In this document: positions 961-2,469 of the stretch, one piece after another | Position numbering within the stretch: position 1 is the stretch's first letter | How the letters are laid out: every line of letters begins with the position of its first letter | Sequence record: OR844650 | DNA from: Escherichia phage ECO103 4-12-1 | Direction: 5' to 3' (one strand) | DNA length: 64,000 nt | Position numbers and translations under genes: made by a program | The notes under the pieces: generated by a model | Databases searched by the model: none | Told to the model about the DNA's origin: nothing | The model's input: only the letters and a program-made list of their open reading frames with translations

Positions 961-1932
961 TCAATAATTTATATTTTTTGATATGAAGTCTTTTATAATT
1001 TTAATGTGGTCATCTGAATACTTTATTCTAAGTAAAGTAATATTATTATCATAACAATACTTATTCTTAATTTCATCATTTCGTTGTTGTTCAGCTAAAC
1101 CTTCTTCTCCACCGAAGTATTCTATTGGTTTGAAGTGTTGGATACCATCATATTCTATTAGTAGATTAAGTTCAGGAATATAAAAATCAAATGGTAAATG
1201 ATTGATGTTTTTACAACTATCAAATTTCTTTTCCATTTCAAACATTATATCACACGTTTTTAAAAAATTCTGAATTTCAATAACAGGTTTTGATTTTAGT
1301 TCTTGGTCTGAACAAACTGGACACCCTTGTTTTCTATGATAATGCTTAGTAGCTAGTACGGTGAATTCCCCATGTCTCTTACATAATGGTGTAATGGTTT
1401 CATACATGCCATTATATTTTGTATTAGAGTAATCATAATTATCCATGTGTATGAACTTACAATCTTCAAAGAACACATCTTCTGGAGTTCTCTTCTTTAA
1501 TCCATTTTGAATTTTGGCACATTCAGGGCAACCTTGTCCAGATAGATGATTACTAACTACTTGATTAAATTCACCATGACCTTTTTCTTTGCATATAATA
1601 GTAATCTTTTCTGAACGAATGTTAAAAAACACTTTTGAGTAATCATACTTATCACCATGAACTTCGGTAGCTTCAGTGAAGAATGACCCCAGAGATTTTT
1701 TAGACTTTCGTTCTTTCTTTGCAATATCAGAACAAACTGGACAACCTTGTTTTGCAGAAATGTGTTTATTAGGAACTACTGTGAAGTCACCGTGAATGTT
1801 ACACGTAACAGTTATTGGATGGTGTGCATTGACATATATTGTTTTATTGTATGTGTAAATACTACCATGAATATTCATTGATTTATCTATGAATTGTTGT
1901 TGTGTAATTTTAGCCATTCTTGTGTACCTCAC
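961..1932 (-). CDS. putative free-standing (homing-type) endonuclease: three tandem Zn-ribbon-like repeats plus C-terminal PD-(D/E)XK Vsr/DUF559-like nuclease domain
   Basis: Three about 50-aa repeats each ending in GCPxC (…HGDFTVVPNKHISAKQGCPVC / …HGEFNQVVSNHLSGQGCPEC / …HGEFTVLATKHYHRKQGCPVC); C-terminus FDFYIPELNLLIEYDGIQHF…RNDEIKNKYCYDNNITLLRIKY matches the D…E(V/Y)DG…H…D..R…L…RI pattern of Vsr-like/DUF559 nucleases. Confidence 0.5.
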   Translation of the reverse strand: MRYTRMAKITQQQFIDKSMNIHGSIYTYNKTIYVNAHHPITVTCNIHGDFTVVPNKHISAKQGCPVCSDIAKKERKSKKSLGSFFTEATEVHGDKYDYSKVFFNIRSEKITIICKEKGHGEFNQVVSNHLSGQGCPECAKIQNGLKKRTPEDVFFEDCKFIHMDNYDYSNTKYNGMYETITPLCKRHGEFTVLATKHYHRKQGCPVCSDQELKSKPVIEIQNFLKTCDIMFEMEKKFDSCKNINHLPFDFYIPELNLLIEYDGIQHFKPIEYFGGEEGLAEQQRNDEIKNKYCYDNNITLLRIKYSDDHIKIIKDFISKNINY

Positions 1933-1977
1933 AAAACTTTTTAATATACATTATTTACAGAAACAGGACAAAACGCT

Positions 1978-2469
1978 ATGAAAAAGAGATTGAAAAATCC
2001 CAATGAAGCAGCAGCTTACAGAAAAGAACTACTAAAAAAACAAAATGGTATTGACCCCATTATAGGAATAAAAATAACTAAACCAGTACTTGACCACTAT
2101 CATGGTGGAAATCAACATTGTAGACAGGTTCTTCAAAATGAGGTGAATGGATGGGAAGGAAGGGTCGCAAATTCATTTAAACGCTGTCTGGGCCATTTAA
2201 CTGATAAACCTCTTCATGAAGTACTAAGAAATCTGGCAGATTATCTTGAAAAGAACAATAACATTCCACCTGAAGAGCAAGTCATACATCACACAGCACT
2301 AACTGTGGATGTTAATAAGTTTAAAAGGCTTCCAGCAACACAGCAAAACGCGATTCTGGAAGGGTTAGGAGTTGTCCCTGGTAGTAACACTACTGCTCGT
2401 GTAAAGCAAGCTAGAAAGCTGATTAAGGACGGTAAATTAAATATGGTTGATATAAAAAAAGGGAGCTAA
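1978..2469 (+). CDS. HNH / endonuclease VII-like domain protein (divergent)
   Basis: LDHYHGGNQHCRQVLQNEVNGWEG resembles the T4 EndoVII core LDHDHELNG…RGLLCNLCNAAEG (DHxH … R.(L/V)L.N..N…EG), but the Zn-binding cysteines are replaced. Confidence 0.35.
   Translation: MKKRLKNPNEAAAYRKELLKKQNGIDPIIGIKITKPVLDHYHGGNQHCRQVLQNEVNGWEGRVANSFKRCLGHLTDKPLHEVLRNLADYLEKNNNIPPEEQVIHHTALTVDVNKFKRLPATQQNAILEGLGVVPGSNTTARVKQARKLIKDGKLNMVDIKKGS

Follow-up and report, generated by a model that had tools for sequence, protein, structure and literature searches.

A probable free-standing homing endonuclease gene, with zinc-finger repeats and a Vsr-like domain, beside the resident endonuclease VII gene of a jumbo coliphage

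In T5orf172 genes, repeated zinc fingers of the DUF723, DUF4379 and CapR types act as the modules by which homing endonucleases of phages bind DNA (PMC10448857). The combination of CapR/DUF4379/DUF723-type fingers with a Vsr-like nuclease was described in 2025 as a large outgroup, not recognised before, of the EDxHD/Vsr homing endonucleases (PMC12350094). In phage T4, the free-standing endonucleases SegF, SegG and MobE cut at a distance from their insertion site, with co-conversion (PMC2988022). Here we describe a locus that bears comparison with these systems, in a stretch of 64,000 nucleotides (hereafter the window) from Escherichia phage ECO103 4-12-1 (sequence record OR844650). As a preliminary description of this DNA had stated, two divergent open reading frames (ORFs) are found there, one at 961-1932 on the minus strand (323 aa, GTG start) and the other at 1978-2469 on the plus strand (163 aa). 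We consider it probable, and hold with good confidence, that the first is a free-standing homing endonuclease gene, made of a zinc-finger array and an EDxHD/Vsr-like domain, which lies beside the resident endonuclease VII (EndoVII) gene and spreads by the homing mechanism proposed below. The nuclease is a new member of the recently recognised homing endonuclease group, and as such an ordinary kind of phage parasite.

Translation of the nuclease gene very probably begins at the ATG at 1917, so that the protein has 318 rather than 323 residues: homologs align from this codon, public assemblies include a call for an identical protein of 318 aa (P0001), and a GAGGT Shine-Dalgarno sequence lies upstream, at 1926-1930, 9-13 nt before the ATG. 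Three tandem repeats of about 50 aa, each ending in GCPxC, had been reported for this protein; we found GCPVC, GCPEC and GCPVC at residues 58, 129 and 198 (318-aa numbering), with repeats of ~60 aa each (Table 1). The repeats match one another within the protein (internal self-match, E = 8e-18). Their C..H..H..C..C pattern is unchanged in every repeat across an alignment of 34 homologs, in which all 12 putative zinc ligands are invariant. Two Pfam families pass their cut-offs, DUF723 (29.5 bits for a cut-off of 20.9, over three stretches) and DUF4379, the 'probable treble-clef zinc finger' (25.6 bits for 24.5, residues 109-140 of the 323-aa ORF). The N-terminus carries, in other words, a CapR/DUF723/DUF4379-like array of the sort seen in the outgroup of PMC12350094. 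In relatives of the 318-aa protein, the number of repeats ranges from 3 to ~7.

The C-terminal ~110 residues show a D...E.DG.QH...D..K pattern that is invariant in the same 34 homologs, with D244, E255, H261 and D281 among the invariant positions; D257 is present in this protein, and a weak alignment to AbaSI pairs D...ExD..H. Sequence matches of this domain all stayed below threshold (DUF559 with E = 0.16, DUF2726 with E = 0.003, DUF5889, PvuRts1I_N), and these sub-threshold families agree with one another, as all of them (DUF559, DUF2726, DUF5889 and the N-terminal domain of PvuRts1I/AbaSI) are Vsr-like PD-(D/E)xK nucleases. The structure predicted with AlphaFold2 (AF2), from an alignment that left out the protein of Salmonella phage Munch, is confident (pLDDT 92) and has the Vsr-like PD-(D/E)xK fold at its C-terminus. 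The C-terminal Vsr-like domain put forward in the preliminary description is borne out by this fold, while the profile matches to DUF559 and DUF2726 remain sub-threshold.

More than 7500 homologs were found at E ≤ 1e-10; a search for paralogs within the 64-kb window found none. Among the PHROG families, matches were obtained to phrog_559 (1e-66) and phrog_9084, annotated 'homing endonuclease' (2e-31), and an 'intron encoded nuclease' family was matched too; a scan of NCBIfam gave nothing useful. The label 'HNH endonuclease' attached to phrog_559 was considered and rejected for the 318-aa protein: it is a misnomer here, as the HNH motif is absent and the nuclease domain is Vsr-like. Public labels on homologs are diverse, and include 'HNH endonuclease', 'hypothetical protein', 'very-short-patch-repair endonuclease', 'ferredoxin-like protein FixX' and 'HypA'.

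We then turn to the distribution of the gene. The window is ~98% identical to Escherichia phages G17, Sharanji, 121Q and PBECO4, and is assigned on these comparisons to a 121Q/PBECO4-like jumbo coliphage (Asteriusvirus, Rak2-like, ~350 kb). A blastn comparison with G17 gave 98.0% identity over positions 1-899 and 97.9% over 1977-7000, with 900-1976 standing in place of 58 bp. At least 19 Asteriusvirus records, with 97-99% identity in the flanks, lack this cassette, and 4 independent assemblies have it in identical form. Among phage records, no protein was more than 60% identical to the nuclease. A second allele, which we call allele B (87.9% identical in amino acids, 85% in nucleotides; L229-L231, 17 contigs), is found at the same junction, in a backbone with 99.4-99.5% identity to the window to its left and right; the left junction of the cassette reads AAGTACTTA/G (the slash marking the junction), and is the same in allele B (L229). 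Homologs with 47-60% amino acid identity occur at exactly this site, also divergent from EndoVII, in Salmonella phage Munch, in Klebsiella phage fENko-Kae01 and in five metagenomic lineages (L008, L090, L091, L092 and L094). The gene is missing from 16 other Rak2-like lineages, including L011-L024. Presence and absence at a fixed site in near-identical genomes, together with recurrence in diverged ones, is the distribution expected of a homing gene.

To judge by its sequence, the cassette is self-contained, with its own Shine-Dalgarno sequence, a late-promoter-like element and a terminator, and it lies immediately upstream of EndoVII and divergent from it. The promoter-like element, TGTAAATA, matches the T4-type late promoter TATAAATA at 7 of 8 positions. 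The cassette has replaced the region upstream of EndoVII, where cassette-free alleles have TATAAATA ~35 bp before the EndoVII ATG. By analogy with T4, TATAAATA-like elements may act as late promoters; we keep this role as an inference, because only two exact copies are found in the 64-kb window (6590-6597 and 12629-12636), for 10.4 ± 3.2 expected. A motif so strongly depleted would be consistent with late-promoter function in these phages. Of the two exact copies, one is found in the space from which the gp55-like gene and a structural gene diverge.

The sequence that differs from the G17 backbone extends beyond the cassette. Counting mismatches between the window and G17, we found 3 over positions 1-848, 15 over 849-890, 85 over 1977-2295 and 1 over 2296-2469; past 2469, the right flank is again 99.5-99.6% identical to G17. 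The diverged part of EndoVII resembles that of UE-S1 (86%) and that of the cassette-bearing L008 (80%, for flanks of ~70% in L008) more than that of G17. The tract of allele B starts at the same junction without a left patch, covers the whole EndoVII gene and ends at ~2450-2500. Both cassette-linked tracts are thus almost wholly on the EndoVII side, the left side amounting to 50 bp in the window and 0 bp in allele B. A third tract is found in the cassette-free UE-S1, internal to EndoVII (~2024-2295; L003, 4047-4318) and 94% identical to the window allele over 2049-2190; the first ~47 bp of its EndoVII gene and the region upstream are identical to G17. It may have arisen by a conversion that ended before reaching the nuclease gene, or by recombination that removed a cassette. 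The pattern of the tracts, their sharp bounds and the different endpoints in the two alleles are consistent with co-conversion.

One-sided tracts are what a break inside EndoVII, away from the insertion point, would be expected to leave, as is the case for T4 SegF, SegG and MobE. EndoVII is probably the gene that carries the target of the nuclease, and within it we infer a target in the interval common to all three tracts, ~2024-2295, which includes the codons of the EndoVII catalytic core. This leaves ~270 bp of the EndoVII gene as the probable place of cleavage. The mechanism we propose is as follows. During a co-infection, the zinc-finger array would bring the nuclease to a related phage's cassette-free allele, and the Vsr-like domain would break the DNA beyond the insertion point, on the side of EndoVII, most likely in the first ~320 bp of EndoVII (~2024-2295). 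The recombination machinery of the phage would repair the break with the cassette-bearing genome as template, copying the cassette and the adjacent stretch of donor EndoVII into the recipient. The diverged EndoVII stretch could also shield the carrier from cleavage by its own enzyme.

Ordinary homologous recombination during co-infection by jumbo phages might explain the same mosaicism, the nuclease gene being an inactive or domesticated homing relic. The locus also holds unrelated insertions (a methyltransferase in L015, ORFs of unknown kind in L017 and CBB), and the tract endpoints fall in highly conserved coding sequence, which would favour crossovers. Two things make an inactive relic unlikely: its functional residues are all intact, and one and the same backbone has been entered by two alleles at a shared junction. 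The putative zinc ligands and the conserved nuclease residues are all kept, as is the reading frame in all nine alleles and homologs; the backbone that received the two different alleles is 99.5% identical; and divergence is limited to the immediate flank of the cassette, several kb on either side being near-identical. Nuclease genes at recombination boundaries are moreover the expected mark of active homing genes (PMC10448857).

Another possibility is that the nuclease mainly benefits the phage as a weapon, which would exclude the markers of co-infecting relatives or attack another mobile element or satellite. Precedents exist: T4 seg and mob endonucleases cause localized marker exclusion (PMC2988022), and ICP1 has put related zinc-finger nucleases to use against satellites (PMC10448857). 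The cassette is also fixed in several sampled lineages. Yet most relatives lack the gene, and no satellite-like target is known for these phages. The activity involved would be mechanistically the same as in homing, and the data separate neither from the other. As the main role of the nuclease, we consider this very unlikely, and retain homing as the best explanation.

Several points weigh against that explanation. Catalysis by the 318-aa protein, and by the zinc-finger plus Vsr-like outgroup in general, is a prediction. The nuclease gave no significant match in sequence searches of the PDB, whether as a single sequence, a full-length profile or a C-terminal profile, so that the fold assignment of its nuclease domain rests on the predicted structure; its likeness to characterised EDxHD enzymes is one of fold only, at 16-18% identity. 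Phage genomes are mosaic, and the conserved stretch coding for IHHTAL (~2283-2320) is a natural crossover point, so that ordinary recombination could have produced the boundaries. Finally, the N-terminal allele type of EndoVII was tried as a predictor of the cassette and dropped as evidence, as the separation was not clean. The type 'GIKIT...RCLGH' is found in 6 of the 7 cassette-bearing lineages and in 6 of the 16 without cassette; because it also occurs in the cassette-free L011-L015 and UE-S1, it does not cleanly split sensitive from resistant genomes.

The 163-aa ORF is a different matter: it is the phage's own full-length endonuclease VII, a core gene and not a mobile one. It matches phrog_423 (3.5e-32), and its family profile matches T4 EndoVII (1e7d) with E = 1e-6, the LDHxH...N..EG motif being aligned; a single-sequence search of the PDB returned nothing, and the score against Pfam Endonuclease_7 (PF02945), 13.7 bits, is below the threshold of 23.6. 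The AF2 model (pLDDT 93) was matched by Foldseek to T4 EndoVII (1e7l_A) with template modelling (TM) scores of 0.66 and 0.68 over 162 columns, at a probability of 1.0, and to nothing else significantly. The match covers the full-length gp49 fold, including the C-terminal helical domain. Across 34 homologs, residues D39, H40, H42, R49, N57 and E60 do not vary; in a hidden Markov model (HMM) alignment to 1e7d, they correspond to T4 D40, H41, H43, R54, N62 and E65.

T4 EndoVII requires its Cys4 zinc site to bind DNA (PMC6083498). The protein of the window has only two cysteines, C48 and C70, with Q53 and V56 opposite T4 C58 and C61: the Cys4 site is absent, as it is throughout the clade. The preliminary description, which had seen here an EndoVII-like core lacking the zinc cysteines, was correct on both counts. 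EndoVII proteins of this kind form a widespread subfamily: in almost all related viral contigs, G(I/L)DP(I/V) takes the place of CxxC, and Q..V that of C..C. The classical CxxC...CxxC arrangement was found in 1 of ~60 related viral contigs (L079, among loci L026-L089), a count obtained with search patterns that favoured the zinc-less subtype. We class the protein with this zinc-less subfamily, and not as a canonical EndoVII. The missing cysteines are a trait of the subfamily, with no sign of a special role at this locus.

In all of the ~30 Rak2-like loci examined, EndoVII lies between the baseplate-hub operon and gp46/gp47, with or without the nuclease gene. This universal synteny and the complete gp49 architecture rule out that the 163-aa ORF is itself an inserted homing gene of the HNH/EndoVII (F-CphI) type. 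The idea of homing insertions between conserved genes therefore stands for the longer ORF, where gene content among relatives shows a clear insertion polymorphism, and falls for the shorter one, which is universal and syntenic. The preliminary description had also offered that the two ORFs might form a functional pair, a nuclease/immunity or anti-defence duo. They are indeed adjacent, divergently transcribed and both nuclease-like. However, most Rak2-like genomes, like many other phages, have EndoVII but no nuclease gene, so that co-occurrence is not obligate, and EndoVII is a full-length structural ortholog of T4 gp49. Nor did PADLOC show any meaningful likeness to defence components: it returned noise only, the nuclease matching unrelated models with E = 0.0016 and 0.0054, and nothing for EndoVII. 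We regard a functional pair as extremely improbable. Table 1 collects the coordinates of the features on which the homing explanation is built, with those of their surroundings.

Table 1. Position of the features at the nuclease/EndoVII locus (window coordinates; residues in 318-aa numbering)
Feature	Position	Strand	Basis or remark
Segment foreign to the 121Q-type backbone, ~1.45 kb	849..2295		left patch 849-899, cassette 900-1976 and 5' part of EndoVII 1977-2295
Inserted cassette, 1077 bp (nuclease gene, terminator, new intergenic region)	900..1976		replaces 58 bp of the empty allele; blastn vs G17, UE-S1, 121Q
Terminator-like hairpin and T-run directly after the nuclease stop codon, within the cassette	921..949	-	equivalent hairpin in allele B
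Probable homing endonuclease gene, 318 aa + stop (mechanical ORF reaches GTG 1932)	961..1917	-	P0001 100% identical; phrog_559, phrog_9084; AF2 model
C-terminal Vsr-like (EDxHD-related) PD-(D/E)xK nuclease domain, predicted	964..1296	-	residues ~208-318; invariant D244, E255, G258, Q260, H261, D281
Zinc-finger repeat 3	1312..1482	-	residues ~146-202; C179, H182, H192, C199, C202
Zinc-finger repeat 2	1519..1692	-	residues ~76-133; C109, H114, H124, C130, C133; DUF4379 match
Zinc-finger repeat 1	1732..1908	-	residues ~4-62; C39, H42, H52, C59, C62; DUF723 match; AF2 model
TGTAAATA, 7/8 match to the T4-type late promoter TATAAATA	1952..1959	- (nuclease strand)	exact TATAAATA in the Munch and L008 cassettes
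Co-conversion-type tract in EndoVII	1977..2295	+	73.7% identity to G17 vs 99.4% in the rest of the gene
Endonuclease VII (T4 gp49-like Holliday-junction resolvase), zinc-less subfamily	1978..2469	+	phrog_423, 1e7d profile match, structure, synteny
Bidirectional terminator hairpin between convergent EndoVII and gp46	2458..2479		annotated as terminator in G17, UE-S1, Munch

Going one step further, the fingers might read DNA in a modular way, one finger of ~60 aa per sub-site, in proteins with 3 to 7 fingers; the lineage would have specialised on the sequence coding for the EndoVII catalytic core, and the two classes of EndoVII alleles met among Rak2-like phages would be cleavage-sensitive and cleavage-resistant forms kept by an arms race. 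This is a speculative extension, which we think has little chance of being right as it stands. If it were true, the family would offer a natural, compact, repeat-based scaffold for programmable nucleases.

Downstream of EndoVII, the gp46/gp47 recombination genes named in the preliminary description were found as a gp46-like gene at 2488-4635 (715 aa, Rad50 zinc hook/SMC) and a gp47-like gene at 4644-5693 (349 aa, metallophosphatase); a gp55-like late sigma factor gene lies past them. The surroundings of EndoVII in Rak2-like phages are an insertion hot-spot, with varied cargo on both sides. A 343-aa T5orf172/MUG113 gene with CxxC fingers, nearly identical in Rak2 (L019, 4483-5542) and L008 (2418-3449), sits between EndoVII and gp46. 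A DNA methyltransferase gene lies between the hub operon and EndoVII in fHe-Yen9-04 (L015, ~2183-4001), and unrelated ORFs of 406 aa and 244 aa are present in L017 (4483-5740) and CBB (L022, 4474-5245). In the Salmonella 'Asteriusvirus' records SD-15_S21 (L009, ~1411-1749), SD-1, SD-2 and SD-6 (310-326 kb), the EndoVII gene is broken: ~175 bp are missing, between the equivalents of ~2125 and 2300 in the window, and two small ORFs are annotated in place of the gene. These genomes are also 20-40 kb shorter than their relatives. The broken gene may come from a fault of assembly and not from the biology of these phages.

Just left of the insertion, a candidate structured RNA was detected at ~326-783 (a core of ~400 nt within a conserved element of ~460-500 nt). 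This stretch has no ORF of more than 45 aa and a higher GC content, and it is 67-77% identical at this position in nearly every Rak2-like phage. In an alignment of 16 lineages, 87 pairs were predicted, 39 of them with compensatory double changes, and 97.1% of the cells were paired, compared to 84.5% in shuffled alignments (none of 500 reached the observed value) and 39-47% in slid registers. The RNA was assigned at first to the plus strand, and this was revised after refolding the reverse complement (-74.8 vs -60.7 kcal/mol). The strand is probably minus, because of this better consensus energy and because a covarying hairpin followed by an invariant T-run, terminator-like, is found on that strand at ~401-380. 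The minus-strand alignment, of 21 sequences including paralogs, gave 88 pairs, 47 with double changes, and 98.1% pairing; in its controls, pairing was 83% for shuffles and ~40-44% for slid registers, the latter with 9-16 double-change pairs.

Each Rak2-like genome holds 2-3 copies of this RNA, ~70% identical to one another; in 121Q (NC_025447.1) they lie beside EndoVII, at ~192.8-193.4 kb and at ~247.5-248.1 kb. A Citrobacter amalonaticus prophage carries a homolog at its edge, next to a large serine recombinase gene (L190, 3554-4111). This sequence was not used to derive the structure, and it keeps 83 of the 87 pairs, both partners having changed in 19 of those kept. Rfam gave no match to the RNA at permissive thresholds, the search for tRNA and tmRNA in this stretch was negative, and no paper describing it was found in the literature. 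A genome-wide scan with the motif produced mostly chance matches, with 1 true homolog in 100. Among large RNAs of phages, ROOL and GOLLD assemble into multimers. We do not link the RNA of this locus to the nuclease, because it is present with or without the cassette. It is the more surprising object of the two, and deserves a study of its own.

The nuclease/EndoVII locus does not overturn current understanding. It corrects two annotations: the 318-aa protein is to be described as a Vsr-like homing endonuclease instead of an 'HNH endonuclease' or a hypothetical protein, and the 163-aa protein is a resident resolvase instead of a second mobile nuclease. It also provides an unusually clean natural experiment, in which a single 99.5%-identical jumbo-phage backbone is met in three states (empty, with allele A of the window, with allele B), each allele having a mapped tract. 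Cultured partners for crosses exist, namely 121Q, G17, PBECO4 and others.

How does this locus compare with known systems? T4 gp49 is the reference for the 163-aa ORF, as both share the full-length fold, the D/H/H/N/E residues with the R54 equivalent, a similar length (157 vs 163 aa) and a universal presence in the phage group; the ORF differs by the missing four zinc cysteines (CX2-4C...CX2C) and by a Pfam score below threshold. F-CphI of cyanophage S-PM2 is a homing endonuclease that uses the EndoVII catalytic motif, which shows that such a use is possible; unlike the 163-aa ORF, F-CphI combines a C-terminal motif of this type with an N-terminal region of another kind.

For the nuclease, the closest relatives are in the EDxHD/Vsr outgroup (PMC12350094), whose members are likewise phage-borne and consist of three to five zinc-finger domains of ~60 aa followed by a Vsr-like nuclease of ~100 aa; the gene studied here differs from them in being free-standing and intergenic. 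I-Bth0305I, the EDxHD prototype (PDB 3r3p), is also phage-borne, with an N-terminal DNA-binding region and a C-terminal nuclease (PMC3239194), but it has NUMOD/helix-turn-helix motifs instead of zinc fingers, is intron-encoded in recA, and shares 16-18% identity without a significant sequence match. Hef of the T-even phages, assigned by Taylor et al. to the EDxHD family, is free-standing beside a DNA-metabolism gene as well, a likeness drawn from its description (PMC3239194, PMC2988022). Finally, T4 SegA-G and MobA-E and the T5orf172 enzymes of ICP1 and other phages resemble the present case as intergenic cassettes of sporadic distribution between conserved DNA-metabolism genes. The nuclease gene also shares with them a pattern of co-conversion in flanking sequence, here apparently from a cleavage site at a distance; with the T5orf172 zinc-finger homing endonucleases, it shares the DUF723/DUF4379/CapR finger module. 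What sets it apart from the Seg, Mob and T5orf172 enzymes is its catalytic domain, predicted to be a Vsr-like PD-(D/E)xK nuclease rather than GIY-YIG/T5orf172 or HNH.

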